64,000 nucleotides of DNA from a virus (Duplodnaviria; Caudoviricetes): the IMG/VR virus record IMGVR_UViG_3300027804_000063, positions 10,186 to 74,185 of that record. The stretch is one strand, 5' to 3'. The number at the start of each line of letters is the position of its first letter. Within the stretch, counting starts at the first letter, position 1. Below the pieces are notes generated by a model. It did not search any database. It saw nothing but the letters and a program-made list of their open reading frames with translations, and was not told the DNA's origin. The position numbers and the translations under genes were made by a program. Below, in pieces: positions 5,918-64,000 of this stretch.

Positions 5918-5993
5918 TCTTTTCTCCTTGTTTAGTAGTTCTAGTTTCGGGTTTCCCCTCACCCATAAGAATAGGTGAGGGGTGTAACACGGT

Positions 5994-6350
5994 TTAGATG
6001 TCTTCGTCTTCTTGATCTTCGTCGTCTTCGTAGTCTTCCCAATCCGCGCCTTGTGGGATGAGATTTGTGAAACCGTCGTTCGGGTTTTCTTCGTTGGTTT
6101 CAACCGCGTGAACGAAACGCAAACTGCACGACTCGTTATACCACTTGACGATCATGTCATACATTTCTTGCGGTGTTCCCGTGAAGTTGCGATCATCACA
6201 ACTCACGCCGTTGTAGTTATCACGAAACCATTGCGCCTGACCTTCGTCCATTGCGACATAGATTTTGTGACAACCATCAAACGCGATCAGTTTCGCGGTT
6301 TCGGTTGCCTGTCTGACATCCTCAAACAGTTCGGTGAGTGTTGCATTCAT
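5994..6350 (-). CDS. Hypothetical protein with acidic tail
   Basis: AAGGAG SD and own promoter. Confidence 0.75.
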   Translation of the reverse strand: MNATLTELFEDVRQATETAKLIAFDGCHKIYVAMDEGQAQWFRDNYNGVSCDDRNFTGTPQEMYDMIVKWYNESCSLRFVHAVETNEENPNDGFTNLIPQGADWEDYEDDEDQEDEDI

Positions 6351-6430
6351 TTTCTGCTCCTTTGTTTAGTAGGTTTATTCGGGTGTTTGCCCTTCCCCCA
6401 TATTGTAGGGGAAGGGTGTAACACGGTTAT

Positions 6431-7066: not shown

Positions 7067-7461
7067 TACTTCTCCTTGTTTAGTTAGGTTTATTTGCTTG
7101 CCCCAACATTATGCATGATGGGTGTAACACAGTTATTTTTTAGTAGGTATTTTTTATTACTCTCACATTATATATCCGACAAAAACAAAAAGCAACTATT
7201 CCCCAAAACTATTTAGACCTAAATACGGAGCGATATTTAGAGCGAAATCTAGAGCGATCACTCAGCCCGACCAAATGCGATCCGTATTCAGGTTTATATG
7301 CGCCACCGTTCAGGTTAGATGCGAACAACCAACCATTGCTAACTAACAATCGTTGCAAACTAGTCCCGCATCAACAAAGCCCACCCCACAGCCCCGCCCC
7401 CCGCCGCAAGGCGCGGGACTAATGCTTGCGAACGGCTGTTCGCCCTACTACTATCGGGGCT

Positions 7462-27745: not shown

Positions 27746-28519
27746 TTACGCATATTCCACTTCGTTGTATGCGTCAAGGTCTGCTTCGCCGAGATCAAAG
27801 ATGAGAACACTGTCCTCACCCATTGTGTCGCGTCCGAGAACGCTGACTTCGGTTTCGCCGTCCTTCCAATCAACCCGTGTGTGGTGGTGTCCGCAGATGT
27901 GGAACTGTGGTGTCACCTTGTCAAGGATTTCTTTTACAAGATGTCGCTGTGCGATAGATACTTGAATGTCGTCCTTGTAGGTGATTTTGTTCCCGTTGTC
28001 ATACGGTGCTTCGTGGGTCATCAAGATATCAACGGGTTCGTTGCTGATGAGATCAACATCAAACGGGTTGATGAGTTCGCCACGCCACCACGATTCGCCT
28101 TCCACACGGTCTAACCAATCAACTGAGTACGCACCTCCGTAACCCATAAAGGTTGTTTCGTTGATTTGGAAACGACATCCACGAGGAATGTACTGTAACC
28201 ATTCGTTAGGTGTTGGTATCGGGTTGTTGCGTCCGTTGCAAGTTGTGAGGTCACGAATGATGTCGTGGTTCTCATGGTTTCCGTCAATCCACAGAAACTT
28301 GATCTGTGCTTGTTCTGCGAGTTCTGCGACACGGTTCACGAACTTGCGTCCGAATGGTTTGTGTACCCAATATCCGAAGTCGCCTACCGAGATGATGTGC
28401 GTTACTTCGTTCTGTTGTGCGTGCCTGATTACCCACTCGGCGTGTTCAATGTTGCCGTGGATGTCGCCTGCGAACATTACCCGTTGGTTGTTCTGTTTAG
28501 GGTTTAGTAGTTGTTTCAT
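27746..28519 (-). CDS. Calcineurin-like metallophosphoesterase
   Basis: GDIHG, GDFG, DGNHEN, THEAP, GHHH. Confidence 0.9.
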   Translation of the reverse strand: MKQLLNPKQNNQRVMFAGDIHGNIEHAEWVIRHAQQNEVTHIISVGDFGYWVHKPFGRKFVNRVAELAEQAQIKFLWIDGNHENHDIIRDLTTCNGRNNPIPTPNEWLQYIPRGCRFQINETTFMGYGGAYSVDWLDRVEGESWWRGELINPFDVDLISNEPVDILMTHEAPYDNGNKITYKDDIQVSIAQRHLVKEILDKVTPQFHICGHHHTRVDWKDGETEVSVLGRDTMGEDSVLIFDLGEADLDAYNEVEYA

Positions 28520-40678: not shown

Positions 40679-42425
40679 TGTTTCAGTCCCACAGCATGTT
40701 GACAAATTCCTTTCTAGATTAAACGGGGTTCGTCCAACTAGTAACGGGTGGGAAGCACGATGCCCATGTCGCAACGACGACGAAAACCCTTCCCTGTCTG
40801 TGGGACTCGGCAACGAAGAAAAGATTTTAGTTACCTGCCACCGCGGTCAGGGTTGCTCGGTTGATGAGGTTTGTAAATCCGTTGGATTGCAATTGTCTGA
40901 TTTGTATCCACCTAAAAAAGAAGAACGAAAATTATCTCTCGTCGCAACATATGACTATCGCGACGAGCGTGGGCAACTTCTTTTTCAGAAACAGCGATTC
41001 GTGGATCAATGGGGTAAGAAAACTTTCCGCCAACGACGTCCAGACCCTGTCAATAAGGGTAGATACATTTTTTCTCTTGATGACACACCGAAAGTTTTAT
41101 ATCGCCTTCCCGATGTTCTTCATGCCAAAGCGAACAACGAAGTTATCTGGCTTGTGGAGGGCGAGAAAGATGCGGACAATTTAGTCAAGTTGGGTATCTG
41201 CGCCACAACCCCTCCGAACGGTGCGGGGAAGTGGCTTGATATTCATACGCGCGCTCTTGAGGGCGCCCATGTTTACATCATTGCGGACAATGACGCCGTT
41301 GGTCGTGAACACGCACAGATGGTATCTCGGACACTTGAACAGAACGGTTGCACTGTAGTTAGTTGGGTTCCGCCTAATGGTTTTAAAGATGTTTCGGATT
41401 TGTTGGCTGCTCGCGGGTCAATTGATGACCTTGTGGAAATGAAATTTGCTGAACCGCTAGATGACATAGTTGATCATGAGGAAGAGGAACAGCAAACTGA
41501 CGCAATCATTGAGGCGACAACGCCACTAAGTGCTCTTGCTGAAAGAATAAGTGACCTGCTTCAGCGAGAAGATATTTCCGAAAATGTGAGGCTTACGAAA
41601 GCATCAATGCTTATCGGCTCATTCGGACATGAAGACGAGATTGACCGAGGCAGGCTAGTTAATTGGTCGGATTTTCTTCTTGAAAACGAAAACGATGAAT
41701 ACGATTGGGTTATCCCAAATGTTTTGGAGCGTGGAGAGCGTGTAATTGTTGTTGCTGCGGAGGGTGTGGGTAAAACCATGCTTGCAAGACAGATAGCGAT
41801 TTGCAGTTCTTTTGGTATTAACCCGTTCAATTTCTCGCGGATGAAGCCGATCAGAACATTAACTATTGACCTTGAAAACCCTGAGCGAATTATTCGCAGG
41901 ACTTCAGCAAACATTATGGGCGCAGCCCGTAATCTCGGCTACCTGCAAGGCGACCCAGAGTGCCATATTTTGATAAAGCCGTCAGGTGTTGACTTGATGC
42001 GTGCATCTGATAGGTCAATTATTGAAGAGGCAGTTGAGACGGTGAAACCAGATTTAATCCTTCTCGGTCCTATTTATAAGTCTTTTGTTGATCCCGGCGG
42101 AAGAACTTCAGAATCAATCACTGTTGAAGTAGCCAAATATTTTGACATGCTACGCGACTACTATAACTGTTCCCTTTGGCTTGAACACCACGCCCCTTTA
42201 GGCACATCTTCATCAACACGAGATTTACGACCTTTCGGTTCCGCTGTTTGGTCACGCTGGCCGGAATTCGGTCTCTCTCTAACTCCCGACCCAACGGCGG
42301 TGGGTGAATATGTTTATGATGTGCGCCATTTCCGCGGTGCGCGAGACCTCCGTGCTTTTCCGACTAAAATGAGAAGAGGGAAAGTGTTCCCATTTGAAGT
42401 TATTGAATTTATGAAAGCGTCCTGA
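40671..42425 (+). CDS. Primase-helicase (Zn finger, TOPRIM, RepA/AAA_25 ATPase)
   Basis: CPC...PSLSV...CHRGQGC; VEGEKDAD; ADND; AEGVGKT. Confidence 0.9.
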   Translation: MGNVSVPQHVDKFLSRLNGVRPTSNGWEARCPCRNDDENPSLSVGLGNEEKILVTCHRGQGCSVDEVCKSVGLQLSDLYPPKKEERKLSLVATYDYRDERGQLLFQKQRFVDQWGKKTFRQRRPDPVNKGRYIFSLDDTPKVLYRLPDVLHAKANNEVIWLVEGEKDADNLVKLGICATTPPNGAGKWLDIHTRALEGAHVYIIADNDAVGREHAQMVSRTLEQNGCTVVSWVPPNGFKDVSDLLAARGSIDDLVEMKFAEPLDDIVDHEEEEQQTDAIIEATTPLSALAERISDLLQREDISENVRLTKASMLIGSFGHEDEIDRGRLVNWSDFLLENENDEYDWVIPNVLERGERVIVVAAEGVGKTMLARQIAICSSFGINPFNFSRMKPIRTLTIDLENPERIIRRTSANIMGAARNLGYLQGDPECHILIKPSGVDLMRASDRSIIEEAVETVKPDLILLGPIYKSFVDPGGRTSESITVEVAKYFDMLRDYYNCSLWLEHHAPLGTSSSTRDLRPFGSAVWSRWPEFGLSLTPDPTAVGEYVYDVRHFRGARDLRAFPTKMRRGKVFPFEVIEFMKAS

Positions 42426-42426
42426 C

Positions 42427-43068
42427 ATGGCAGAAAAAGGGTTGACACGAGAGTTTCTTGCTGAGCGGGATTTGCGTATCTTCAAGATGCGTCAGGCTGG
42501 TGTGCCGATTGCGGAGATCGCACGTCGTTTCGGTATAGGAACTTCTAATGTCTCGCACTCTATTCGTAGACAGTTGGGGAAATTGAATCAAGAGGCTTTG
42601 CTTGCCTACCCTGAGGTGTTGCAAATGGAACTTGAACGATTGGATGCTTTGCAGTCCGCGATCTGGCCGCTAACGCAACATAGAAAACAAAAGATGGATG
42701 ATGGGACAGAGGTTTCCATAGAGCCAGATATCAAGGCTGTGTCTACCGTTTTGTCAATTATTGATCGTCGCGCAAAACTTCTTGGCATGGAACAAACAAA
42801 TGTCAATGTTCAGATGGATGTTCGTGATTCTTCCCCAATTCGTGCCGTGTTGGCAGGTGCTCCCGGTGTTGTTCAAACAGAAAAATTTGATTCAGAGGCT
42901 GAAGCCAAAAAACTTTTGATGTTGATGGGTGATGCGGGGATCATGCCGAAAGAAACAATTAGGGAATTGCTTGGAGATCTTCCTGCGTTGAGCGACGGTG
43001 AAGATGACATTGAGGATGGGGAGATTGTGGAGACGGAAAAATCTCCCACAGAGATAGAACCCATCTAA
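42427..43068 (+). CDS. HTH protein, possibly terminase small subunit-like
   Basis: N-terminal HTH; LERLDAL...IIDRRAKLLG. Confidence 0.6.
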   Translation: MAEKGLTREFLAERDLRIFKMRQAGVPIAEIARRFGIGTSNVSHSIRRQLGKLNQEALLAYPEVLQMELERLDALQSAIWPLTQHRKQKMDDGTEVSIEPDIKAVSTVLSIIDRRAKLLGMEQTNVNVQMDVRDSSPIRAVLAGAPGVVQTEKFDSEAEAKKLLMLMGDAGIMPKETIRELLGDLPALSDGEDDIEDGEIVETEKSPTEIEPI

Positions 43069-50770: not shown

Positions 50771-51298
50771 ATGAGTAATATAACTACAAATACTAAAGAA
50801 AGTGGAAATATGGAAACATCCCTGATAGCCCTACCAACCGTTAGAAACCTTAAAGAAGCACGATCTGAGTGCCTCTCGTATGATGCCGTTATAACCGCCG
50901 GTCCACACAAAGACGAGGTGCGCGATTTCGGTCACCCATGCCATAAGGTCGTTCAGTTCAGCGACACCATGTTTGAGCAAAATGGCGGACCGACCTATGG
51001 AGAAGTGGTTGAACTTATTGAGTTTGGCACAGGTGTGCCAAAACTACTAGTTCACTGCCATGCGGGTATCTCTAGGTCAACCGCAACAGCGTGGGGAGTG
51101 GCGATTGCCAATGGTTATGACCCACTTGAATCATTCCTACAGTTACAGGAAAACCACCCTATTGAGCATGGGTTGTTTCGTGGCGCGAAACGAACATTCG
51201 CACCAAATATTCTTATCGTCAAGCATCTTGACAAGTATTTCAATCTGGGTACAACCCTCCTAGAAATACGAAGCAAGCACACCGAGATGGGTTGGTAA
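50771..51298 (+). CDS. Protein tyrosine/dual-specificity phosphatase-like protein
   Basis: CX5R loop VHCHAGISRS; TTGCCA-N18-TACACT promoter suggests a leaderless start. Confidence 0.85.
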   Translation: MSNITTNTKESGNMETSLIALPTVRNLKEARSECLSYDAVITAGPHKDEVRDFGHPCHKVVQFSDTMFEQNGGPTYGEVVELIEFGTGVPKLLVHCHAGISRSTATAWGVAIANGYDPLESFLQLQENHPIEHGLFRGAKRTFAPNILIVKHLDKYFNLGTTLLEIRSKHTEMGW

Positions 51299-51302
51299 GA
51301 AA

Positions 51303-52253
51303 ATGCGCATATTTTGGAACGAAAACTACACGAGCATCAAACACAACTTTGATACTTCGCGCAAATCCAACAACATTATTGAGATGATTCAATCAGATCA
51401 AAACGACACCCCTAATAGGGTTAAGTTGTTAAAAGATATCCCGAGTGTTCAGATCGTCAACCCTGAGCAAACAACGGATATTTCTATTACTGAACGACTT
51501 ATTTCCAAATGGCTTGATTCGGAATATGTTGAAGCATTAAAAACAAACAACAACAGGTACTTGGCTGAAAGTCAAGGTTTCCCGTGGTGCACAAACACAT
51601 ACAAGTTTGCGCGCGCCCATACACACGGCTTGATCGCGTCAGTTGACGAAATTAAGGCTGGCGCAAAAAGGTGCGGGAGTTTGTCCTCAGGTCTACACCA
51701 CGCCTCACGAAGCGGTGGTATGGGGTTCTGTACTATCAACGGGGTTGCGTTGTCTGCCATATATGCGTATGAGCAGGGATTTGAGCCAATTATTCTTGAC
51801 TTTGATGCCCATTGTGGTGGCGGAACAATGGATTTCTTGAAGGCATTCAACAGCACATTTCAAACCTCTGAAAAACCAATACGCCACATTGATTTATCAA
51901 CCAACGGATTTGACTCATATAACCCAACACAGACAGATCATTGGTCATATCTACACATCCTTGAACGCAACGAAAATTATTTGGAAGCGATCAGCAGGGC
52001 GTTGGCGGAAGCCAAACCCTTCATTACCGATAAGACTTTGTTTATCTACAACGCAGGCATAGACCCAATAGGATCCCATGGGATAGATGACGATGTCATA
52101 GCGGATAGGGAAAGAATGGTTTCTAGTTTTATAGGCGACAGTAAGGCTATTTTTGCTTTGGCTGGCGGATATTCTGGTAGAACTGTGTCGCGAGACGATG
52201 TCGCACGAACACACCTCAAAACGATTTACGGTTGGTCATGTCAGACGAAATAG
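51303..52253 (+). CDS. Zn-dependent histone deacetylase family protein
   Basis: GLHHA, GFCTIN, DFDAHCGGGT, NAGID, GGY. Confidence 0.92.
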   Translation: MRIFWNENYTSIKHNFDTSRKSNNIIEMIQSDQNDTPNRVKLLKDIPSVQIVNPEQTTDISITERLISKWLDSEYVEALKTNNNRYLAESQGFPWCTNTYKFARAHTHGLIASVDEIKAGAKRCGSLSSGLHHASRSGGMGFCTINGVALSAIYAYEQGFEPIILDFDAHCGGGTMDFLKAFNSTFQTSEKPIRHIDLSTNGFDSYNPTQTDHWSYLHILERNENYLEAISRALAEAKPFITDKTLFIYNAGIDPIGSHGIDDDVIADRERMVSSFIGDSKAIFALAGGYSGRTVSRDDVARTHLKTIYGWSCQTK

Positions 52254-52736
52254 AACATGGGCTTTACGCCACATACACCAACATTAAATGCAGATGCGAA
52301 TTGTGCAGGAAAGCCGCTGCGGAATATATGCGCAATTACAGGAAAACATCTGTTGGTAAATCGCAAGCGCGTTTTCATCAGGTCGTAGCAAATAAGCGAT
52401 CACAAATTGCTATTCAATGGATCAAAGAAAACCATCCTGAGCAGTGGGATAAAATATGTTCACGCGCAATCAAACTCGTCAAAAAACAAGAAAGCGAAGA
52501 TTAATATGCCCTATGAAAGAAATGATTTAGAGGCTCGGTTTGATGATTTCGTTGAAGAAACAAATCAAAAAATTAAAGAACTTGAGTCAGTTATTCGCAT
52601 TCTTCAAAATGAACTGAGTTTGACCAAAAAAGAAACAACTAAAATCAATATCACAAACCAAGACATAAAGTCATCGCTCGGAGCAACAATCAAAACAGTT
52701 GGCGATATTGTCAGAAAAAATGGATACCGTAAATGA
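52238..52736 (+). CDS. Two small ORFs (52238-52504 with HG..Y...CRC..C; 52506-52736 coiled coil)
   Basis: Coupled ORFs. Confidence 0.65.
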
Positions 52737-53320
52737 GTAAATATCAAGGCTCAAGCAACCAAGAGGCATTCGTTCTAGAACTTCTTGACTATAAAAGAGC
52801 AGGCTTCTATGTTGAACTTGGGGCTTTCCATTCATCCGAAGGCAGTAATACCAAGATCTTGGAACAAGATTATGGATGGCAAGGTGTTTCCTTTGAGTTG
52901 GTTGATGAGCGCCGTTCCGAGTTCATTGAAAATAGGTTTAATCCATGTATGGGCGATGCTCTAAATTTTGATTATTTAGGCTACTTCCGCGACAATTTTT
53001 TCCCTAAGCAAATTGATTATCTACAGGTAGACATAGATACGGGATATGACAGGGCGACAAGACCTAACGGAAATCACTACACAACCCTTCTAGGTTTGAT
53101 TACCGTTCCGCTAACCCAATATAGGTTTTCAATTATCACCTTTGAGCATGATGCAAACATGTACTTCCGCAACACTGGTCAAAGAGATGCGCAACGAGAA
53201 ATCCTTGACTGCCTCGGCTATACATTGGTGGTGAGAACTATTCATGAAGATTGGTGGGTTGACCCAACAGTCATTAGCCCTGATGTCTATAAAAAGCACA
53301 TGAGATGGGAAACCCTTTAG
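52733..53320 (+). CDS. FkbM-like SAM-dependent methyltransferase
   Basis: FYVELGA...SNT..LE...GWQG...IDYLQVDID...ITFEHD. Confidence 0.8.
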   Translation: MSKYQGSSNQEAFVLELLDYKRAGFYVELGAFHSSEGSNTKILEQDYGWQGVSFELVDERRSEFIENRFNPCMGDALNFDYLGYFRDNFFPKQIDYLQVDIDTGYDRATRPNGNHYTTLLGLITVPLTQYRFSIITFEHDANMYFRNTGQRDAQREILDCLGYTLVVRTIHEDWWVDPTVISPDVYKKHMRWETL

Positions 53321-53898
53321 TGGGTAGCAAAAAATTTTATCCGTTTGTTTATCTGACAGATTTCCTGCCAAAAACAGACCACGAAACGCTTCTGAATCAA
53401 GCACTACAAAGCGAAGGTAGTTCTGATCCGCAAACCACTCATTTGATAAATCTAAGAAACTTGAACACATGGTCTGTGCGTGAGAAAATAATTGAAATAT
53501 ATCCACGCCATTTCGGTGAAAAATTACTCAAGATAAAAGGCGGTAATGTTCTTGCGTTTTACGATCAAAGAGGCATGGATTATCATCAAGATTCGGTGCC
53601 GAATAAAGATTATCCTGATGATCCAGAAGTTGGTTTTCCGCCCAACGCATCAGCCGTGTTTTACCTTAATGACAACTACGAAGGTGGGGAAGTCTGTTTT
53701 TCAACCTCTCAGCCGTCTGAACCACAGCCACGAATCGGCGACGCGAACATTACGCATTTGATTACTATAAAACCAAAAGCGAATTCATGTCTGTTTTTTG
53801 ACGCCGACATATGGCATTGGGTTAGACCAGTAACGGCAGGGAAAAGGTTCTCTGCAACATACTTTTTGCTTGTTGAACCACAGGCTAATCTTGGGTGA
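53305..53898 (+). CDS. 2OG-Fe(II) oxygenase, prolyl-4-hydroxylase-like
   Basis: YHQD, YLNDNYEGGE, KPK, WHWVRPVTAGKR. Confidence 0.88.
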   Translation: MGNPLVGSKKFYPFVYLTDFLPKTDHETLLNQALQSEGSSDPQTTHLINLRNLNTWSVREKIIEIYPRHFGEKLLKIKGGNVLAFYDQRGMDYHQDSVPNKDYPDDPEVGFPPNASAVFYLNDNYEGGEVCFSTSQPSEPQPRIGDANITHLITIKPKANSCLFFDADIWHWVRPVTAGKRFSATYFLLVEPQANLG

Positions 53899-54056
53899 TG
53901 CTTGAAAAAACATCTTTAGCGGAAACAGAATTTAATGCTTTGTACAATAACGCCACGCGCAGACTGCAAGACGAAATAGCGGTATTGAAATTGAAGATCA
54001 GCGAACTAGAAAAGCAGATAAATTGGTTAGAGCAAGAAAACTCTAAACATCTTTAA

Positions 54057-54458
54057 TTATTTTGTTTTAAATTCAGCCCAAGTCTTGTCGCCGACACCAA
54101 AATATTCACGCGCATAACCAGACTGAATAATGTCGGTGTTGAGGCATGCTGTCTTTGGGTCATCAATTTTGTCTGAACTAAAAATTCGTGCAAGGATGCG
54201 ACCGTATTTATCGTTTTTGTCAGGAATCGTATTGACAAATACCCACTCGTGGTTAGTTAGCCAATCTTCTGTAAATTTTTTTGCCTTTAATCCAAGTTCT
54301 TTTTCAGCAAGGTCTTTTGTTCGTGACTCTGGTGTATTCACACCGTAAAGCCGTACACGCATTTTATGGTGAATATTAAAACCAAGATCAACCATCAACT
54401 CAATTGTGTCGCCGTCAATAACTTTCTTGACAGTAGCGCCATACCAAAATCTTTCCAC
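54057..54458 (-). CDS. Thermonuclease (SNase-like)
   Basis: VIDGDT, VRLYGVNTPE, DKYGRILA. Confidence 0.9.
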   Translation of the reverse strand: MERFWYGATVKKVIDGDTIELMVDLGFNIHHKMRVRLYGVNTPESRTKDLAEKELGLKAKKFTEDWLTNHEWVFVNTIPDKNDKYGRILARIFSSDKIDDPKTACLNTDIIQSGYAREYFGVGDKTWAEFKTK

Positions 54459-54460
54459 GG

Positions 54461-55216
54461 CTAATCCTTATCTTTGGAGTTCTTGTATCGCTCAAGCATG
54501 CGTCGCCCTTTTGCGGCGAGAGCACTAGCGTCTTCCGCATTTTGCGGAACTGGTTCACCCCATGCCGCGGCTGAAAGAGCAAGGCGTGTAGGTCTGCCTT
54601 TTTCGTCCTTCATTGGTCCTGATGGATTACTGAAAAAACGGGTGAGGAATGAACCTTTGCGACGCATTTTTTCTGGTGTATCGGCGCGACCTTTCACTCC
54701 CGGTTTCAAATTTGAGCCCTCTGTGCGGTTGAAATGGGCTCTTCCCGCTGCGGTGAGCCCACCTTTTGGGTCTTTAAGTGGCTTATCAGACTTTTCTTTC
54801 AGTATCGGACCACCGCTTACCCATGCATCACAAGTTCTCGCGCTGGCGCATTTAAAATCAAATGCTTCGCAATAACCAAGATCGCCAGCATCCACAACTT
54901 CCCAAGCGCTGTTTCCTTCTTCGTTACCTAAACCACTTTCAATGCATTTCAGCATTCGTGGCGTCTTGATGAAGACCGCACAATTCCCACAGCGTTGTTT
55001 CTTCGCTTCTCCTTCAGAAACATCCCATCTGTCAGCCTTATTCTCCCAAAAAGAATTATTGGGTTCGTTTGGATTGAGCGGACCGTAACCAGCGTCATCT
55101 ATCGCTTTCTGCCTATTTTTAATGTTCAACTTGATATCGGATGTCGCAGGGGGACATTTGGTTTCAGCCTTTACACGAACCGAAATCGGTTGATCAATTA
55201 TTTCAGTGAACTTCAT
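54461..55216 (-). CDS. HiPIP-like Cys domain plus DUF6321-like domain protein
   Basis: CGNCAVF...GYCEAF...TCDAW; KDPKGGLTAAGR...SFLTRF. Confidence 0.6.
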   Translation of the reverse strand: MKFTEIIDQPISVRVKAETKCPPATSDIKLNIKNRQKAIDDAGYGPLNPNEPNNSFWENKADRWDVSEGEAKKQRCGNCAVFIKTPRMLKCIESGLGNEEGNSAWEVVDAGDLGYCEAFDFKCASARTCDAWVSGGPILKEKSDKPLKDPKGGLTAAGRAHFNRTEGSNLKPGVKGRADTPEKMRRKGSFLTRFFSNPSGPMKDEKGRPTRLALSAAAWGEPVPQNAEDASALAAKGRRMLERYKNSKDKD

Positions 55217-55243
55217 ATAGCCTCCATTATCCCACAAAAGCAA

Positions 55244-55281
55244 AAACCCCGCCCCAACCTTTCGGCTGAAGCGGGGTTTTT
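55244..55281 (-). terminator. Intrinsic terminator downstream of the capsid gene
   Basis: AAAAACCCCGC...GCGGGGTTTTT. Confidence 0.8.
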
Positions 55282-55297
55282 GTTAATTGCTTAGTGA

Positions 55298-56602
55298 TTA
55301 GGCTGATGGAGCCGCATCAAAACTTACCTTAACGAACGACTCTGGTCGCTTCACAGCGAGAGCGAGGCGTTGCTCGGCAAGGATGACGATCGCGTTACGC
55401 ACGAAGAAGTCTGCGTGCTGTTCCGAGATACGGATGCTTGGTGATTCACGGTCGTAGATTTGTGCGCCCGTACCGAAAGCACCGATAAGTGCAGTGCCTT
55501 CAGCAATTGCTGGCGTATCCACAACTGGGATCCTCCACAACTTCTGCTCGCCACCCATTGCAACAGAGACTGCTACGACATAAGCGCCGTTGCCGTCCTT
55601 GCTGAGTTCAATGTCTTCCCAGTCGTTCGGGTTAAGAACGATGCCCGATGGCTCGTAGTAAGCCAAGAAGGACAGGGTAGCGGCACGACGGATTGCGTCA
55701 GCCTTGGTGTCGGACATTCCTGCGGTGGCGGAGTAAACGCCATCTGACCAGTTGTAGGTCTGAACACCAGAGGTATTGAGAATACCAGTGAGGTTCTCGC
55801 CAGTGCCTGAACCGTTGAGGATTTGTGCATCTTCCTGCAAGCGGAGACCGTACATCAACTCGTTGTCAATGATTGAGCGCAGTTGTGGCTCATCAGCAAG
55901 AACGTTGCGGTGTGCGGCTTCCCAGTGAGCCAAGGTGCGAACAGGAGCCTGCTCACCAACGAAGGTGAAGGACGACTGTGGCTTGGCTGCGAAGGCGGCA
56001 CCTGAACGCTCAGCGACTGCTGCTGCGTTGTTGGTGAAGCCTGTCATGCGGAAGTACTCAATGATTGCGGCAGTCGTGGTGCGGCTTGGGAACAAGTCAC
56101 GAACACGCTTGGTACGCATTGGAGGAACGACCATTGCATCGCGTTGGATGGTTCCAAACGAGCCAGGTGTACCAGTTGGGAGTGCTGAGTACAAGTCTTT
56201 TACGTTGTAGTCACTCTTGTATGGTGCTGGCATGTTTGCTGATCCGCTAGCAAGAAGCGACTTGAACTCTGCTGAAGCAAGGAATGCTTCGCCGATGCTC
56301 TTGGAGCGTACTTGCTGTACTGCTTGCTGAAGTTCCGAAGTTGCAAAAGCCGAAGCCTGTGCTACTGAATCTTGTGGTTCAGAAGCCCACTTGTCAGCAT
56401 CGCGCATTGCCTCAAGGCTCTCAACGAGGCTCTTGATTTCGCGGATGTCTGCCATGTTCTTGTCAAACGCGGTCTTTTGTTCTGCTGATACGACCACGGT
56501 GCCGTCTTCAATTTTGAAGTTGTCGGCGATGGTCTTGTTTTCTGCCATCTTGGCGCGCATTGCACCTTGAAGTTCAGTTAAACGGCTGTTGTCAAATGAC
56601 AT
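55298..56602 (-). CDS. Major capsid protein, HK97 fold
   Basis: Coiled-coil delta domain, then VRDLF...TLAHW...ILNGSGTGENLTGILN...AEQRLALAVKRPESFV; AGGAG SD. Confidence 0.92.
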   Translation of the reverse strand: MSFDNSRLTELQGAMRAKMAENKTIADNFKIEDGTVVVSAEQKTAFDKNMADIREIKSLVESLEAMRDADKWASEPQDSVAQASAFATSELQQAVQQVRSKSIGEAFLASAEFKSLLASGSANMPAPYKSDYNVKDLYSALPTGTPGSFGTIQRDAMVVPPMRTKRVRDLFPSRTTTAAIIEYFRMTGFTNNAAAVAERSGAAFAAKPQSSFTFVGEQAPVRTLAHWEAAHRNVLADEPQLRSIIDNELMYGLRLQEDAQILNGSGTGENLTGILNTSGVQTYNWSDGVYSATAGMSDTKADAIRRAATLSFLAYYEPSGIVLNPNDWEDIELSKDGNGAYVVAVSVAMGGEQKLWRIPVVDTPAIAEGTALIGAFGTGAQIYDRESPSIRISEQHADFFVRNAIVILAEQRLALAVKRPESFVKVSFDAAPSA

Positions 56603-56750
56603 ATTTTTCTCACTCCTAGTGAATTGGATTTTTTGGTGGTTACTTCGTGGATATTTGCAGACTTCGGTAAGCACCTAGTCCAGTTACTATTACTGTAATA
56701 CGAGAATAACATCAAAGTAGTATTAAAAATGCAACCCCATTTAAAACGGG

Positions 56751-58514
56751 TTATTTTGCGTAATGTCTTTTCACAATTTGTGGGCAACATTGTTCTTTGT
56801 ATTTGATTCCGTATTCACCGTCGTCAAAACCAGCCCATTTTTTGTTGGTTTTTTTGTTGCGCCATGGGTGATCTAGCGGCAGTAAATCGTTATCATCAGA
56901 ATACTTTACGTCCTTTGGCTTATCTGAAAGAAGCAACGATAGGAACCGAGAAACCCGCTTATTCGCTGAAGAACGATCCCCATCTTGCAGACCGCGTAAA
57001 TACACGGTCTTTAGGTCGCGGAGATTTGTTTTCTGTGTAGTTTTTGCTTTGGCGTTATGTTGGCGCACACGAATGGCAAGATTATTTACATCTGAACTTG
57101 AAATAGATGGAGGAAGTTTTTTGGGTTTAGCCACAACCTTGTGCAAAAAAATCCCATCCGTTAAAGCATCCTTTTGAGATGACTTCACACCACGAGGCAA
57201 CATAATATCGCGAACATTTAGTTCTTCAGGCGTTACAACATATGGAAGTCTCTCCTGACGGCTATGTTCGTTTATATGTTGCTGAACCTGTTTTGGTGAT
57301 AATTTAAATTTTTTTGCTGATGCAACATATGCGCGACGCATCATAATGCGTTTTTTCTTCGCATAGTCTTTATCGTCTTTGCTGATTCCAGAATTTTTTT
57401 CCATCGCCTCAATAGTTGATTCCCAATAATCCAGCACCTCTTTTGCCTTATCGTAGGCAATAGCGCCAGGGGCAAGACGAGGTGCATCGGGTTCGTAAAC
57501 ATATCCTCTCGCGTTGGCGAGTCTTCTATCACGCTTCCTACGCGCAACTTCCTCATCCCACGCGTCAAGATCTCGTTGCTGTGCGCGGGTTAACTTTTTC
57601 TTTGGCGCTTGCTTCTTAGGCGCTGGTTTCTTTTTTTGAGGTTTTGGCACTTTGATAACGGGAATATTATCTTGACCGTCAGGACCTGTTCTAAACCCGT
57701 CGCCATCGCCGTCGTCGTTTGAAACAACTCCGCTTATTGGTTTGAACATTCTCCTGTATCCACCGATTGTTCTGCCTAAAGCCTTGTAATCTATCGCATC
57801 TTTTTTCTTGTATCCTGAGCCTTGGCGGCGAGGATTTATGCGAGGGCTATTATCGCCTCGTATGCCAGTAGCACGGTTGTAGTCGGAAACATTCGTACAT
57901 GGCAACCAAACAAGTTTTCCGTCTCGTGCGGTATATCGGCGGATACCGATACAGCCAAGGTTTCTTGCACGGATACGAGCAGACTCGGGATCGCTGAAAG
58001 TATCAGGGTCGGTAGAACGGCTAACAAAGTTAACAAAACCTTTTTCTTCAATGATTTCATCGGCTTCTTTGCCAGCGACAGCAGCGGAAACAAGCCCCCC
58101 ACCGGGCAATGTTTCAATGCCAGCAATAGGGCGCTCGTCTAATTTTTCCCAACCTTTGCGTGGTTTGTGGTCGCACGGAGCGTAATAGCGTTTACCAGCA
58201 AGAATGATTGTCCGCACGCCACCGCAACCGCGAATCTTAGAAATAGATAAAGCATCAGATCGGCTTTCGTAATACGCGTCTGTTTTTGTTTCTAAACGCT
58301 TTGTGCGTTGAACCATTTTGGGTGTTGGTTTTTTGTTTTTAGCAGCACGAACTTTTAAATACTCTTCTTTGCCTTTTTTGATTGCTTCGTATTCATCCAT
58401 TGACGCACAAGGCATCCAGCCCTTTTCGCCTTCATGCGCGCCTTGGCACCCGAGCATTCTTGCGACGCGAAGAGCCTGCTCTCTCGTCGTTAAATCAGGT
58501 TTTTTATTTTCCAT
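56751..58514 (-). CDS. Large head-cluster protein with three GCxG...PC repeats
   Basis: ARMLGCQG...MPC; KIRGCGG...APC; ARNLGCIG...LPC. Confidence 0.75.
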   Translation of the reverse strand: MENKKPDLTTREQALRVARMLGCQGAHEGEKGWMPCASMDEYEAIKKGKEEYLKVRAAKNKKPTPKMVQRTKRLETKTDAYYESRSDALSISKIRGCGGVRTIILAGKRYYAPCDHKPRKGWEKLDERPIAGIETLPGGGLVSAAVAGKEADEIIEEKGFVNFVSRSTDPDTFSDPESARIRARNLGCIGIRRYTARDGKLVWLPCTNVSDYNRATGIRGDNSPRINPRRQGSGYKKKDAIDYKALGRTIGGYRRMFKPISGVVSNDDGDGDGFRTGPDGQDNIPVIKVPKPQKKKPAPKKQAPKKKLTRAQQRDLDAWDEEVARRKRDRRLANARGYVYEPDAPRLAPGAIAYDKAKEVLDYWESTIEAMEKNSGISKDDKDYAKKKRIMMRRAYVASAKKFKLSPKQVQQHINEHSRQERLPYVVTPEELNVRDIMLPRGVKSSQKDALTDGIFLHKVVAKPKKLPPSISSSDVNNLAIRVRQHNAKAKTTQKTNLRDLKTVYLRGLQDGDRSSANKRVSRFLSLLLSDKPKDVKYSDDNDLLPLDHPWRNKKTNKKWAGFDDGEYGIKYKEQCCPQIVKRHYAK

Positions 58515-58777
58515 TACTTTTTATCTTTAGTGTTAGATGTTTCAATTTCTGTGGCATACGGAATGGACATTGAGTACTTATCGTATAGGTCGTCTAATTT
58601 GTCGGAGTTATTGGGATCCATTAGAAAAGCAATCATTGATTCAAGATCGCCATCTTGCCCATTTTCGTTTGCAAAACCATAAGCGGTAGAAATGATGCGT
58701 GAACGAGTTTCGGCGTTTTTAACTTTTGTTAGAAGTTCCGACTTGATAGAATTTTTTTGTTCTGCTGTAAGTTTCAT
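58514..58777 (-). CDS. Small acidic protein (immunity-like position)
   Basis: Coupled immediately downstream of the GNAT-ending giant ORF. Confidence 0.65.
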   Translation of the reverse strand: MKLTAEQKNSIKSELLTKVKNAETRSRIISTAYGFANENGQDGDLESMIAFLMDPNNSDKLDDLYDKYSMSIPYATEIETSNTKDKK

Positions 58778-61700
58778 TACGCCCTCGGTTGCTGTACCCG
58801 TATACGCGGGCGACGAGTTTTTGGTTTAGCGAATCGTGCGCCAACTTTTTGTGCCGCAAAACTTAGTTCACCACCCGGGAATGGCAGACCAGATCTTCCA
58901 TCCTTGAACCATTGTTTCACATATTCTGCCCGTGTCTTGTCACCAGTTGGGTCGTCCAAAGCAAAAATAATATCTTGGTGATGGAATGTTTTCCCACCAC
59001 GAGCCTGTGTAAGTATGGATTTAATTCTCTGATATTCGGCGTCGTTACCGATAAGTCCGCCAGCACCAAAGTTCTCGTAGAACCTTAGAGGAGCCTCAAG
59101 TTTTTCTAATTCCATTCTATCCAACGGTCTGCTTCTCTTGAACCCAACACGCGCCCAAACATATTGCCCGTCATCAGCGGCATTTACTTTTGCTTTTGAT
59201 ACACCGATTTTCTTCAGGTACAAAAAGGCGTGCTGATTATAAATTGTCTGAATATCAGCACCACGATCTATTTTGCTCGTAACAAACATGGAGTTTTGTG
59301 ATACTTGGCTCGCCGAAACATCACGACTTGATGATGCAATACCTCTACGAATAATCACCCCATCTTTGTTTATCTCGTGAAATACTACAGAAACATGATG
59401 ATTATTCATGCTTCCACGAACCGTTGCTTCAGCGCGGTAAAGTTTTCCGTTTGCCCCTTCAATCCTGTCGTGACTATACGCCTGCTTTAAATAATCTTGT
59501 CTTTGCGCGGCGGTTAATGTTCTCCACTTTTCAGGGGTCATATCTTCATACGGTGCACCACCTTGAGGATGGCGTTTCTTCAAATATTTTTCAAGTTTAG
59601 TTTGCCGACGATCAATCGCAGCCTCTATCTGTTTATTGATTTGCTTAAGAACATCATCTGGTGTCGGCTTCGGCATATCGGTCGCATCTGGATTAAATAC
59701 AAATCCTTGTTTTTGACGCTCTACTGCTTTACGGATTTCTTGCTCAAGCGAATCATTCAATTGAAGATGTCCTTCAATTTTTCCTATCTCCGAAAGATTT
59801 TTACCTAATTTATCCATTGACTGTGCTCGGGCTGCGTCTCTGTCGCGTGGTGTATTACCTGCTGGAAGTTGGATTGCCCGAAGGAGTGTCTTGTTTGATT
59901 CTTTTAATGCCTTCAGTCGGTCTTCTGCTTGCGACTTGCTTCCGTATGGGGCAAGATGAGCCATATATGCGGCTTTTGCTGCGTTGACTTCGTTAGCCAA
60001 GTTGAAACCGTCAGGGTTTGCTTTGTATTTAGCAATAGCACGATCTAGTTCGTTTTGGTATCGGCGCAAAGCCAACTGTCGTCCTTCATTATGGTTAAAT
60101 ATTGCCTGATCGCCTAATAAGCCAAATTCAACAAGCCGTTCTGGGTCTTGGATACTGAGCAGTACTCGCTCAATAACTTGTTCGTCTTCAGCACTAAATT
60201 TTGCAATTTCCATTTTTGGTGGAACATGCTTTAATTCTTCAGGAACATTTCTGATGTCACGGCGGGTTGGCGCTTCAAATGGTGCATCAATTGAATCTGG
60301 TTTTGGCGTTGGGGTTTTGGGCTTTGGTGTTTTCGGTTTTGGGGTTTTAGGTGAATCGGATCGTGCATCCCTGATTGCCTGCTCCATGAATTCGTTTTCA
60401 AGAACTCGCCTTCTGCGTTCCTGCGCGTTAACAACGATTCTGTTGAGTGCGTCTGCGCGTCTTTGACCGTTTGCCGCACCATCCTGAATTAGTTCAACAT
60501 CGCCGTCTATCCGTGATTGCGCCTTGCGAATTTCTTCTAGGTTTGAGGCAATACGCTCACGCAAATCATCTGGACCGCCCAACTCCTCATCAACGATTCT
60601 ACGCCTAAAGAAACGTCGCACTTCATCAACAGCCTCTTCTTCTGCGTCCCACTGTTCACGCATCACGCGTCGTTCTTCTTCGGTTAAGTCTTTACCAATT
60701 GCTGGTATCCATCCGCGAACAAAATTGTCAAACGCATTATTGTCAAGAAGCGGAACACCCAAAGGAGCGCGGGCAGGAGTAGGTGGAGACGCATTATTTG
60801 GATTTATTAAGGGCATTGATTCCAACTGATCGGCGACTTCTTGCCATCCGTCGCGGTGATCAGCCATAAGTGTTTTCATGCGGGCTACGGTGATGCGCTC
60901 ACCGCCAATTTCCATATAGTCGTTATCGCCAAGTTCTCCGCGGTTTATAGCCTGTTGTAGTTTTTCAATGCGTTCGTTCGCTGCCCTAATTCGTTGTTTT
61001 GCAGACCAAAACTTTTCGCGCATTTGCTGTCTATCATTAGGGAAGTTTTCTGAATCATTAATAACTACAAGTCGTTGTTCTTTGAGTACTCTGTCGCGTA
61101 GATATTCAACGTATTCTTGCGAATTTTCGTTATTAAGTATTTTGTCAACATCAACTTCTTTGCCTGCGCCTCTAGCCCTATCTGCTCGTGCTTGACGCAA
61201 TTGCTCTGAACGAGCAGCGTTATCGCTACCTGCTGGCTTGCGACGCTTCGGTCTCTTGATGAGATTTGCGTCGTCCGCTGGCTGTGGACGGCGAGGCGTA
61301 ACTACTCTTGGTTCTGGCGCTGGTTGGACTGCTTCTTCTTGTCGGCGACGCGGAGCGCGAGGTGCGCGTGTTGCGTCAGCGACCGCACGACGGCGACGAC
61401 GGGCAGGTGCCTCTCCTGTTCTTGGTGCACCCGGTTGTTCAATTTCTCGTTCCATTCTCCGTTGTTCTGACTCACGAAGATTGCCACCGCCTCTACGTCT
61501 TGCTGGCTGTTGTCTACGGGCAGGGCGAACAGGGGCATTGCGTCGTCTTAGTTCCGCCATTACTCGTTTGTAGTCGTCACTTTGCCTACCGCCAGTAGCG
61601 TTCTCTAACTCATCACGCATTTCTTCTAGAACTTCAATAGGTTCTGCGGCGAGAAGATTTGCTTCGTCTCGTTGAGGGCGTGCAGGCGCTTGTCTTCTGC

Positions 61701-62199
61701 GTTGCGGTCTTGGTGCGGGAGGAAGTTCTGGTGTGTCTATTGACGGTGTTCGTGCAACAACAGTTCTTCTACGACCAACAGCAGGCGTTGGTGTTTCTCC
61801 CCCATCAAGTCTGTCAGCGACACCACGAAGCCCGCGCTCAAGACGACCAGCGCCTCTATCTTGAGGGTTTAAACGGGCAAGTATCCGTCGTTCACGACGA
61901 GCAATACGCCGACCACGACGAGCATCATCAACATTTTCAAGCCGTTCACCAATATCTGAAATTTGATTAGCAATACGACGAGCCACACCCCATCCACAAG
62001 ACCTACCGAAACGGTCGGTTATTTGTCCTCCGTATCGCGTCCCTACAGGACAGCGCCAACCTCCACGACGGTTTGTGCCGGGAATGGAAAGGCTTGGATC
62101 CCAAATAGCGCGAACACCTTTAACTTCATAAGCGATAGTAGACGTGTTTCGTTCAGTAAGAAACGATTTCGCTTTAAAGTCAACAATGTTCTGAAGCAT
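58777..62199 (-). CDS. 1140-aa protein with C-terminal GNAT-like domain
   Basis: N-terminal RCPVGT...GG..TD..G.SCG; R/P-rich linker; DRGADIQ...IGV...NA.DDGQYVWARVGF. Confidence 0.7.
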   Translation of the reverse strand: MLQNIVDFKAKSFLTERNTSTIAYEVKGVRAIWDPSLSIPGTNRRGGWRCPVGTRYGGQITDRFGRSCGWGVARRIANQISDIGERLENVDDARRGRRIARRERRILARLNPQDRGAGRLERGLRGVADRLDGGETPTPAVGRRRTVVARTPSIDTPELPPAPRPQRRRQAPARPQRDEANLLAAEPIEVLEEMRDELENATGGRQSDDYKRVMAELRRRNAPVRPARRQQPARRRGGGNLRESEQRRMEREIEQPGAPRTGEAPARRRRRAVADATRAPRAPRRRQEEAVQPAPEPRVVTPRRPQPADDANLIKRPKRRKPAGSDNAARSEQLRQARADRARGAGKEVDVDKILNNENSQEYVEYLRDRVLKEQRLVVINDSENFPNDRQQMREKFWSAKQRIRAANERIEKLQQAINRGELGDNDYMEIGGERITVARMKTLMADHRDGWQEVADQLESMPLINPNNASPPTPARAPLGVPLLDNNAFDNFVRGWIPAIGKDLTEEERRVMREQWDAEEEAVDEVRRFFRRRIVDEELGGPDDLRERIASNLEEIRKAQSRIDGDVELIQDGAANGQRRADALNRIVVNAQERRRRVLENEFMEQAIRDARSDSPKTPKPKTPKPKTPTPKPDSIDAPFEAPTRRDIRNVPEELKHVPPKMEIAKFSAEDEQVIERVLLSIQDPERLVEFGLLGDQAIFNHNEGRQLALRRYQNELDRAIAKYKANPDGFNLANEVNAAKAAYMAHLAPYGSKSQAEDRLKALKESNKTLLRAIQLPAGNTPRDRDAARAQSMDKLGKNLSEIGKIEGHLQLNDSLEQEIRKAVERQKQGFVFNPDATDMPKPTPDDVLKQINKQIEAAIDRRQTKLEKYLKKRHPQGGAPYEDMTPEKWRTLTAAQRQDYLKQAYSHDRIEGANGKLYRAEATVRGSMNNHHVSVVFHEINKDGVIIRRGIASSSRDVSASQVSQNSMFVTSKIDRGADIQTIYNQHAFLYLKKIGVSKAKVNAADDGQYVWARVGFKRSRPLDRMELEKLEAPLRFYENFGAGGLIGNDAEYQRIKSILTQARGGKTFHHQDIIFALDDPTGDKTRAEYVKQWFKDGRSGLPFPGGELSFAAQKVGARFAKPKTRRPRIRVQQPRA

Positions 62200-62468
62200 T
62201 ATTCTCCGTATTTTGCTTTTATCATGTCTACATTTTCTTGCGAGTAAGGAAGCGGTTCATACTCAAAATTTTGTGCGGAAGAACCCCAATATTCAACAGG
62301 ATCATCCATTGTTCCTTTTTTAACAAATTCGCTGTACATGCTTTTAGGGTCATTGATTAGTTCCCTAATTGAGTTGGCAACGTCATTAGAGCCGATCACT
62401 TCAACATTTTCCCCGTCACAGGAAATAGCGAAATTAAAGTTTGGTATGACACCTATAAGTTTTTTCAT
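62199..62468 (-). CDS. Small acidic protein (immunity-like position)
   Basis: Immediately downstream of the kinase-like ORF and coupled to the next gene. Confidence 0.65.
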   Translation of the reverse strand: MKKLIGVIPNFNFAISCDGENVEVIGSNDVANSIRELINDPKSMYSEFVKKGTMDDPVEYWGSSAQNFEYEPLPYSQENVDMIKAKYGE

Positions 62469-62479
62469 ATTTGCATCTC

Positions 62480-64000
62480 CTAAGCCTCTATCTTTCGCAT
62501 TAAACCGTCAAGGAATGCTGGCGAAGCAAATTCATCAATGTTGTGCACAAGGTCTGCCCTTCTACGGTTTTTAACGGAGTCTTCAAGCACCGTAAACGCT
62601 CCGTTTATCTCATCAACGCGCTCTAGTGCTTTCCTCATGTTTTCTGCCGCTGTAGCAATATCCGCTTGTAACTCAGCACGGATAGCGGCAATTTCTCGTG
62701 TTTTTGCTGCTCCGCTCTTACCATCAAGACGTTTTGAATATCCTGCCCAAGAACGACGATCCATTCCTAGGCTATTCAAATAGTCTAATTGTTGTTGAGC
62801 GGTTCTCCGACCAAATAGGGCGCGACCAAAATCTAATGGGATTGCTCCATTGCCTTTGATTTGATCACCGTTACCGTTGTGTCTATCGGCAACATTTATT
62901 ACCGCGTTGAGTATCCCGTTAAATAGACGAGAACGAGCATCTGTGACATTGCCCGGACTGTATGCACCAGCAACCTTGCCATCTGCGTTATTGACGAAAA
63001 TATCCATTAACAAAAACTTACTTTGACCAGTTCCCTTAACAATTCGTGGAGAACCGTTAGCAAACCCAATCGCCTTGGCAAAAACGTTTCCGACTAGTTC
63101 TGCGTGCTGAGATATTGGTTTACCAGCACCGTGGTGTCTCTCCCACTGTGAATCTGGTTTCTTGAGGAAATATCCGCGCCCCCATTTAGTCGGGTCATCT
63201 GAAAGTTTGAAATAGTATTGAGGTGCAGTAATTCCATTACCCACACCGACCTGAATGAAATCTATCTTTCTATCTTGCAACGCCTTGATTAAGTCTTTTG
63301 TTTCCTGATCAACTACTTGTGGCGGGTCACCATTCAGTGATCTGCGCATATTTTGACTTAGACGGCGCATAATGGTTCCAATTTCGGCGTCATCAGCAGA
63401 CGGGAACACCGATTTGACAGCCTCAACAACATTCGGGCTTATCGGACCACTAGCCTTGTGTGTTCGTTTTTGTACAACATCCATCAAAAACTCATCTGGA
63501 ATATCTGATAGTGGACCGTTGTACCTTCGCGCATCGGCAAGAGTATTGATTCCTTTGTTCCCAACAGGAACGGCAACAAATTTGTCGTCGTCTGGTTGTA
63601 GTTTTGGCATTGATGTTGAATGGTTGTCAACAAGATTGTTCATCTTCAATTGTTGAGCATTTTGTTGTGCCCTGCGCCCTCGCGGTCGTCGTAGCGGTCT
63701 TGATATGGGGGCAGGGGGTTGATTTTGTGGAGGTTGTGCTTGCATGGCACGACCTTCGGCAAGGTTTTTTGCCGTCTCAAGAAGGCGATCAGCATATCCT
63801 CGTATGTCGTCTTCATTGCGGTTCGCTGGCACGAGCATCACATTTTTGTAGTTATCTGGTGCCGTAATATGAAGTTCTTTTAATCTGCCGTTTGCATCAA
63901 AAATCTGTTCAACTTTATATCCGTCTCGTTCCCACTGACCATTTTGGTTTTGTGTCCATTTTGATCCAAGATCAATTTGCCGTGGATTTTCTCCTGCATT
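62480..64000 (-). CDS. Protein with C-terminal HipA/PI3-PI4-kinase-like domain (5'-truncated by window edge)
   Basis: YFLKK, HAELVG...AKAIG, VADRHNGN, PLDFG; frame is open to position 64000. Confidence 0.75.
   Translation of the reverse strand, partial: NAGENPRQIDLGSKWTQNQNGQWERDGYKVEQIFDANGRLKELHITAPDNYKNVMLVPANRNEDDIRGYADRLLETAKNLAEGRAMQAQPPQNQPPAPISRPLRRPRGRRAQQNAQQLKMNNLVDNHSTSMPKLQPDDDKFVAVPVGNKGINTLADARRYNGPLSDIPDEFLMDVVQKRTHKASGPISPNVVEAVKSVFPSADDAEIGTIMRRLSQNMRRSLNGDPPQVVDQETKDLIKALQDRKIDFIQVGVGNGITAPQYYFKLSDDPTKWGRGYFLKKPDSQWERHHGAGKPISQHAELVGNVFAKAIGFANGSPRIVKGTGQSKFLLMDIFVNNADGKVAGAYSPGNVTDARSRLFNGILNAVINVADRHNGNGDQIKGNGAIPLDFGRALFGRRTAQQQLDYLNSLGMDRRSWAGYSKRLDGKSGAAKTREIAAIRAELQADIATAAENMRKALERVDEINGAFTVLEDSVKNRRRADLVHNIDEFASPAFLDGLMRKIEA

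Follow-up and report, generated by a model that had tools for sequence, protein, structure and literature searches.

We analyzed a 64,000-nucleotide stretch of phage DNA (the window), which comprises bases 10186-74185 of a 74-kb IMG/VR record with a CheckV completeness of 52%, and the end of which (position 64000) coincides with the end of the contig. Two adjacent genes in this window encode a predicted dual-specificity phosphatase (DSP) and an HDAC-family zinc deacylase, and two very large proteins of the head gene module (giants B and C) end in a kinase domain and a GNAT-like domain, respectively (Table 1). The original prediction, an earlier reading made from the letters of the window, was that the giants deliver writers of phosphorylation and acetylation into the host and that the two adjacent genes supply the matching erasers. 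The source phage is uncultured and has a genome of about 140 kb, complete relatives in IMG/VR being 128-145 kb in size, and its host probably belongs to the freshwater actinobacteria. We found no similarity to isolated phages at the DNA level, and searches of the isolated phages in INPHARED brought up relatives of neither the region nor the two giants nor the phosphatase. Matches in that collection were confined to the capsid protein, which is 47% identical to the capsid proteins of actinophages of Brevibacterium and Gordonia, and to the HDAC, which has a homologue in Rhodococcus phage E3 (36% identity). Phosphatase homologues are seen in freshwater "uncultured Caudovirales" and in one Actinomycetota metagenome-assembled genome (MAG), and 310 relatives of the capsid protein are present in IMG/VR.

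The phosphatase open reading frame (ORF), read from ATG 50771, encodes 175 amino acids. Three starts are possible on the plus strand between 50726 and 50810 (TTG 50726, ATG 50771 and ATG 50810), and the last is the better fit because most homologues are 160-162 residues long and align from there. Its HCxxGxxR(S/T) loop (HCHAGISRS in the window) and upstream Asp identify the product as a predicted Cys-based DSP. The window protein alone matches the Pfam DSPc model (PF00782) with an E value of 0.0046, which does not reach the cut-off; a profile built from 39 homologues reaches solved DSPs at 4e-7, and PF00782 is carried by some of the 135 homologues. Cys96, Arg102 and Asp65 are invariant, with Asp65, 31 residues before the Cys, being the candidate general acid. 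Four nucleotides separate the phosphatase stop codon (51298) from the ATG of the HDAC gene (51303), the product of which matches Hist_deacetyl (PF00850) at 4e-20 (72.7 bits; cut-off 27.9). Among structures in the PDB, HDAC6 is matched at 3.5e-10, aligned over the active-site segments, and the polyamine deacetylases HDAC10 and APAH at 1e-4 to 6e-4. Among 28 unique homologues, the most distant at 37% identity, no variation is seen in the HH, DxH, NAGxD and GGY motifs, which contain the His-His dyad, the zinc ligands (Asp-x-His and Asp) and the catalytic Tyr of GGY. Hence the CX5R phosphatase, the zinc-dependent HDAC and the 4-nucleotide gap between their genes are as the original prediction described them. 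The pair sits outside the head module, near metabolic and accessory genes (ribonucleotide reductase and a 2OG-Fe(II) oxygenase). This oxygenase is the last gene of the run that begins with the phosphatase and HDAC, and could be a third modifying enzyme.

In complete relatives, the region from the prohead protease gene to the capsid gene includes three paralogous giants in tandem, here called A, B and C. Giants A (about 870-950 residues) and B (about 890-1116 residues) of the relatives both end in DRHxGN kinases, and giant C ends in the GNAT-like domain. The window holds giant C and the 3' half of giant B, for which P0180 (1017 residues) is a full-length homologue; comparison with the relatives places giant A, the second kinase-bearing giant, past the end of the contig. 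Giant C has 54 homologue clusters, all on phage contigs of about 140 kb. The three giants have in common an N-terminal module (about 150-260 residues; 50-88% identity). It has no family in Pfam or PHROG, and no lead came from ESM Atlas. Pfam searches found no MuF domain (PF04233) in the giants; in relative G001 this domain is fused to the portal protein instead. The giants are presumably packaged in the head, because they share this module and occupy the protease-capsid slot, the usual place for genes of scaffold and internal head proteins.

The C-terminal domain of giant B is modeled by AlphaFold as a two-lobed kinase fold (predicted local distance difference test, pLDDT, 84; predicted template modeling score, pTM, 0.84). 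Alignment of this model with VIA-align gives Z scores of 12.4 to PI4KII-alpha (root-mean-square deviation, rmsd, 3.8; 212 residues aligned), 12.1 to CotH, 11.3 to HipA, 10.9 to CtkA and 9.9 to HipT, and the top Foldseek matches are all PI3K, PI4K, VPS34 or HipA. Across 26 domains sharing 19-70% identity, little or no variation is seen at K81, E102, D173-R174-H175, N178 and D191; these correspond to the ATP-binding Lys, the helix-C Glu, the DRHxxN catalytic loop and the metal-binding Asp. In the window, the Lys lies in YFLKK (63158-63172), the catalytic loop is DRHNGN (62870-62887) and the metal site is LDFG (62825-62836). A profile of the family aligns these active-site loops to those of PI3K-alpha (E value of 2e-4), PI4KB and DNA-PKcs (range 2e-4 to 3e-3). 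The family is rare, with 19 matches among 1.84 billion representative proteins. The window kinase has no Pfam match, its paralogues reach PF00454 or PF20613 at E values of 0.001-0.04, which are under the cut-off, and no HipA_N domain was found by Pfam in giant B of the window. A single-sequence search had suggested that the kinase is variably present and missing from two complete relatives, but this idea was rejected: by motif and profile searches, giants A and B of all close relatives contain the DRHxGN domain.

The conserved 240 residues at the end of giant C have core motifs at 59140-59175 and 59233-59268, the latter being a partly invariant loop (S-K-I-D-R-G-A-D-I-Q) after beta4. Core polar residues of this domain are invariant down to 41% identity. 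When its model (pLDDT 83) was compared with 48,161 PDB chains, the best 50 were all GNATs, at middling Z scores of 6.1-8.3; among the top matches are the KAT domain of Elp3 (Z 8.3), NatD (Z 8.1; rmsd 3.7; 133 residues aligned), PAT and TacT/AtaT. In BFVD, the model matches actinophage proteins annotated as acetyltransferases. We therefore accept, with moderate structural support, that giant C ends in a predicted GNAT fold. Structure prediction has thus recovered both folds that the original prediction had proposed for the C-terminal domains, the HipA/PI3K-like kinase being borne out by its structural neighbors and by its motifs.

The co-occurrence of these genes was examined in two samples of relatives. 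The phosphatase-based sample comprised 68 loci, with whole-record profile searches on 32 of those records; the capsid-based sample, which is independent of all four genes, was drawn from the best 80 of the 310 relatives, of which 20 were searched whole. Changes were placed on a capsid-protein tree of 50 related phage records, mostly fragments. All four genes are core in the close group, so co-occurrence there is uninformative. In the phosphatase-based sample, the order phosphatase-then-HDAC is kept down to 33% phosphatase identity, many of the 68 phosphatase genes lack a neighboring HDAC, and each record extending over the head module contains a kinase domain. Of the 17 records with HDAC, 12 contain the GNAT-like domain; of the 15 lacking HDAC, four of which are 69-98% complete, none does. 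Among the five records that have HDAC but no GNAT match, three are 7-15% fragments that have neither capsid gene nor kinase, another is a kinase-free 24% fragment, and the last ends before the expected site. In nine HDAC-less fragments, the kinase-to-capsid gap (1.3-2.1 kb) is too short to hold giant C. Wherever both positions are covered, the HDAC and the GNAT-like domain are therefore both present or both missing in this sample. The capsid-based sample gives the same picture: the GNAT-like domain occurs in G046, G056 and G058 only, and HDAC in exactly the same three of the 20 records. Close linkage does not explain this pattern in G046 and G058, because the HDAC gene lies about 21 kb from the GNAT-like domain in both.

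Over the whole tree, HDAC state equals GNAT state in 50 of 50 records (20 with both, 30 with neither), and each trait changes seven times. Five of five independent contrasts on well-supported branches are concordant, and seven pairs are obtained when all branches are used. As controls, HDAC and the phosphatase, and the GNAT-like domain and the kinase, do not co-vary through the same changes. The acetylation half of the original prediction thus receives substantial support from the comparison. The metallophosphoesterase gene that had been listed alongside the writers and erasers is correctly called, with matches to PF12850 and phrog_1649, but we found no link between that gene and the pattern.

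For phosphatase and kinase, the data are sparse but would fit a pairing. Kinases occur in each of the 29 scorable records with a phosphatase, and none of the 13 records that are free of kinases has the phosphatase. Thirteen records (G040, G041, G043-G045, G047-G051, G054, G055 and G059) contain none of the four genes; their capsid proteins are 69-73% identical to that of the window, and one of them is complete with terminal repeats. The existence of such relatives implies that the whole set is accessory to this phage group. Two kinase-bearing lineages without a stand-alone phosphatase (G042 and G053, one of which is 92% complete) carry a fusion of a DSP with an ADP-ribosylglycohydrolase, a predicted combination of two "eraser" activities in one protein. 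Both also lack HDAC and the GNAT-like domain. Pfam searches of the 3662-residue giant of G053 found no ADP-ribosyltransferase (ART) that would be the matching writer.

On these grounds we think it somewhat probable that the giants are cargo effectors, that the HDAC-type deacylase is the dedicated eraser of the mark made by the GNAT-like domain, and that the phosphatase has the corresponding relation to the kinases. The giants would be capsid-internal cargo, most likely ejected with the DNA, and their C-terminal domains would modify host proteins by phosphorylation and acylation on entry, in the manner proposed for T4 Alt and the polyvalent proteins. The deacylase might then reverse the mark after entry, which would constitute a temporal switch, or it might act late in infection, protecting the producing cell while new giants and small acidic ORFs accumulate; the phosphatase would probably play the same part for the kinases. 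More tentatively, we suggest that a clade of actinobacterial phages has its own reversible modification circuit, in which capsid-delivered writers and obligately matched erasers are kept or lost together, and that the ADP-ribosylhydrolase-phosphatase fusion may fill the eraser role in sister lineages.

Several observations weigh against the cargo-effector interpretation. A two-sided sign test on the five concordant contrasts gives p = 0.0625, which is the best that five contrasts can give and is short of p < 0.05. A single-gene tree can mislead in mosaic phage genomes, and absences in fragments that are 6-57% complete are weaker than those in the approximately eight near-complete records. A possible exception is G038, a 36% fragment that has the GNAT-like domain and no HDAC in the 4.5 kb that remain past its capsid gene, compared with a capsid-HDAC spacing of 3-6.3 kb in other records. 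The pairing of phosphatase with kinase yields one well-supported contrast only, and four kinase-bearing fragments have no phosphatase match even at an E value of 10. As to the GNAT call, the fold stands but a sequence-level match does not: the domain has no Pfam or PHROG family and no PDB profile match, the acyl-CoA loop (Q/RxxGxG/A) is only partly recognizable, and the Foldseek matches, although exclusively to GNAT or histone acetyltransferase (HAT) enzymes, have E values of 4e-3 or weaker. Scanning for promoters and terminators near the eraser genes gave results at chance level and was uninformative on the proposed timing. Finally, Rhodococcus phage E3, which encodes the HDAC homologue gp202 (L031:6001-6903), has no match to the kinase, phosphatase or GNAT profiles. 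Two further E3 proteins were inspected. The protein gp204, annotated as a virion structural protein and encoded beside the HDAC, has no Pfam domain; gp70 (L246:15161-18320; about 1050 residues), which is annotated as structural, lies beside the portal gene and is flagged as a pseudogene, gives a sub-threshold match to Acetyltransf_1 (PF00583; 18.3 bits against a cut-off of 20.7) that serves as a lead only.

An alternative, which we consider unlikely, is that the HDAC and the GNAT-like giant share a host rather than a substrate, being useful only in certain host lineages, for instance those in which regulation or defense relies on acetylation, and therefore gained and lost together, with the phosphatase and deacylase acting as general takeover or anti-defense enzymes that strip modifications made by the host. 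The location of the phosphatase-HDAC pair among metabolic and accessory genes, away from the head genes, would be in keeping with this idea, as would the HDAC of E3, which has no clear GNAT partner, and the occurrence of the phosphatase family in bacterial MAGs and in phages that lack HDAC. Concordance in all 50 records over about seven changes, through which the phosphatase and the kinases do not move, is nevertheless more specific than a common host predicts. Less likely still is a pair acting on small molecules, in which the GNAT-like domain and the HDAC-family enzyme would modify a metabolite such as a polyamine and the kinases and phosphatase would act on lipids or sugars. Acetylpolyamine amidohydrolases are members of the HDAC family, as the HDAC10 and APAH matches of the window enzyme recall, the best structural match of the kinase is the lipid kinase PI4KII-alpha, and Actinobacteria make phosphatidylinositol. 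The best HDAC matches are, however, to protein deacetylases, the protein kinases CotH, HipA and CtkA fall within 1.5 Z units of PI4KII-alpha, and the closest structural neighbors of the GNAT-like domain (NatD, the Elp3 KAT domain, PAT and TacT/AtaT) acetylate proteins or tRNA. To judge from these nearest structures, we favor proteins or aminoacyl-tRNA as substrates of the GNAT-like domain and proteins as substrates of the kinase. That the giants are structural or scaffolding proteins with inactive relic domains, unrelated to the phosphatase-HDAC pair and co-varying with it through modular exchange of a larger segment, is very improbable: they do occupy the usual scaffold-gene slot, the GNAT CoA loop is degenerate and neither domain reaches the threshold of any Pfam model, but the kinase Lys, Glu, DRHxxN and Asp do not vary between paralogues that share only 19-30% identity, the GNAT core polar residues are likewise constant at the identities given above, and exchange of one segment is unlikely because the capsid gene, itself the tree marker, lies between the HDAC and GNAT loci, which are 21 kb apart in two lineages.

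Small ORFs that follow the giants may bear on the cargo-effector interpretation. An acidic ORF lies downstream of giant C and another downstream of giant B; the latter, of 89 residues, was assigned no family by Pfam or PHROG. Giant B kinase domains fall into three sequence subtypes according to the metal-binding site (DFG, MDLG or IDHG), each of which precedes a different small ORF (about 90-100 residues) that is unrelated to the other two, and homologues of the 89-residue ORF (62199-62468) occur only beside the DFG subtype. This looks like the exchange of cassettes in which a kinase subtype travels with its cognate partner, and the small acidic ORFs could be cognate inhibitors or chaperones of the neighboring enzymes. 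Adjacency alone would also make small ORFs and kinases travel together.

The gene order of the head module is best seen in the 97%-complete relative G001, in which a divergent terminase gene is followed by a portal-MuF fusion, an S78 prohead protease, three large proteins (of 493 residues, of 562 residues with a DUF3626 domain, and of about 570 residues), giants A, B and C, a DUF3721 protein, the capsid protein, a DUF6321 protein and an endonuclease. The N-terminal module of the giants contains an RCPxGxxYGGxxTD motif that recurs in the protein of about 570 residues upstream of giant A, so that the module may label more head-internal proteins than the giants alone. The DUF3721 protein has three Cys-containing repeats and varies from 379 to 877 residues across relatives, some of which encode it as two ORFs. 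The GNAT-like and kinase domains occur in one ORF in G046 (5929-7410, minus strand; 2464 residues) and G058 (41343-42920, plus strand; 2500 residues). Kinase-bearing ORFs of up to 2047 and 3662 residues are found in other relatives, with at most five kinase-domain matches per genome.

Table 1. Features of the window and of related phage records (positions without a locus name are those of the window).
Feature	Position	Strand	Basis or remark
CX5R dual-specificity phosphatase, candidate phospho-eraser	50771..51298	+	HCHAGISRS motif; family profile against solved DSPs
HDAC-family Zn deacylase, candidate acetyl-eraser	51303..52253	+	PF00850; HDAC6 in PDB
PI3K/PI4K/HipA/CotH-type kinase domain, candidate phospho-writer	62483..63277	-	Invariant residues, model, structural matches
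Giant B, 3' part (506 of 1017 codons), open at contig end	62480..64000	-	Full-length form P0180
GNAT-fold domain of giant C, candidate acetyl-writer	58831..59538	-	Model and PDB matches
Giant C, 1140 aa: shared N-terminal module, Arg-rich helical middle, C-terminal GNAT-fold domain	58777..62199	-	
N-terminal module of giant C	about 61720-62199	-	Common to giants
Small acidic ORF after giant C, 87 aa, pI 4.9	58514..58777	-	Conserved 3' of giant C in relatives
Small acidic ORF after giant B, 89 aa, pI 4.4	62199..62468	-	Homologues beside DFG-subtype kinases only
HK97-type major capsid protein, head-module anchor and tree marker	55298..56674	-	PF05065 at 9e-46
DUF3721-repeat protein between giants and capsid gene	56751..58514	-	PF12518 at 3.7e-12; syntenic in all relatives
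Remaining same-strand run: three small ORFs and 2OG-Fe(II) oxygenase	52232..53898	+	ORF list; synteny with relatives
2OG-Fe(II) oxygenase	53305..53898	+	PF13640 at 2e-11
Metallophosphoesterase	27746..28519	-	PF12850 at 1.4e-8; phrog_1649 at 1.5e-39
ADP-ribosylglycohydrolase-DSP fusion	L243:1722-3296 in G042; L241:1423-2871 in G053	-	PF03747 at 1e-53 to 1e-57
Small ORFs after giant B in relatives	L006:7460-7778; L009:7061-7391; L010:7424-7721		
Portal-MuF fusion of G001	L032:6430-8640	-	
DUF3626 protein of G001	L032:750-2438	-	
Protein of about 570 aa of G001	L006:1-1290	+	

If the cargo-effector interpretation is correct, a bacterial virus would exert timed, reversible control over the physiology of its host, HDAC-family genes would have a role in phages, and a PI3K/HipA-type kinase family would be added to the phage effector repertoire. 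The evolutionary coupling of the HDAC and the GNAT-like domain turns what was a guess into a defined experiment on one domain, one enzyme and one small partner.

Comparison with known systems begins with the kinases. The domain of giant B shares an atypical kinase fold, with a DRHxxN and metal-binding Asp site, with the toxin kinases of HipA/HipB and HipT/HipS, the spore-coat kinase CotH and PI4KII-alpha. It differs from these proteins in sequence (9-14% identity), in the small acidic ORF that follows it, in which no HipB-type DNA-binding partner was recognized by Pfam or PHROG, and in forming the C-terminus of a head-module protein of 900-1100 residues. The T4 Alt and internal proteins, and likewise the MuF-fused polymorphic toxins of temperate phages, have an N-terminal part that directs their packaging in the capsid, from which they are ejected into the host; the MuF toxins vary in their C-terminal domains, and a small immunity gene comes next. 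In the giants, no MuF domain was found, their N-terminal module belongs to no known family and their predicted packaging is read from the genes. Cells possess reversible acetylation pairs, such as AcuA/AcuC and Pat/CobB, in which a GNAT writer is accompanied by a deacetylase, AcuC being of the HDAC family; in DarT/DarG, a toxin is neutralized by an enzyme that removes its mark. Here, in contrast to all three, a phage bears both genes, which belong to different modules and have opposite orientations, and the candidate writer forms the C-terminal end of a giant head-module protein.

Modification of host proteins by phages is exemplified by the T7 kinase and the T4 ADP-ribosyltransferases. Rac, a GNAT of phiKMV-like phages, targets the alpha subunit of host RNA polymerase; it is a small early protein, with no head-module giant and no accompanying phage deacetylase (PMC7552054). 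The system is best grouped with phage cargo effectors and the polyvalent proteins, which are very large, are encoded among head genes, carry kinase, GNAT or ART domains and are proposed to accompany the DNA into the host (PMC5512222). The giants resemble them in being head-module proteins with predicted modifying domains, and G046 and G058 even fuse two such domains. The polyvalent kinases, however, form a truncated Ser/Thr/Tyr-kinase clade in phages of Verrucomicrobia and Bacteroidetes, whereas those described here are of the PI3K/PI4K/HipA type; the polyvalent GNATs are RimI-like, and each giant of the window carries one recognizable effector domain (PMC5512222). Dedicated erasers are not described in that study, in which the words "deacetylase" and "phosphatase" do not occur (PMC5512222). 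In the "Gratiaviridae" gut phages, a HipA-family kinase has its gene between the portal and capsid genes, for which superinfection immunity rather than virion delivery was proposed (PMC8008677). These are phages of Bacteroidetes with one kinase, beside an ATPase and a glycosyltransferase, and no phosphatase partner was noted (PMC8008677). Neither of these two studies mentions a co-evolving eraser, and a search of the literature found no described phage that makes a mark and also has an enzyme dedicated to erasing it. The kinases, the GNAT-like domain and the common N-terminal module of the giants each belong to a family distinct from the described ones, and the tree-based co-variation of the HDAC with the GNAT-like domain is new evidence for an acetylation writer/eraser pair.

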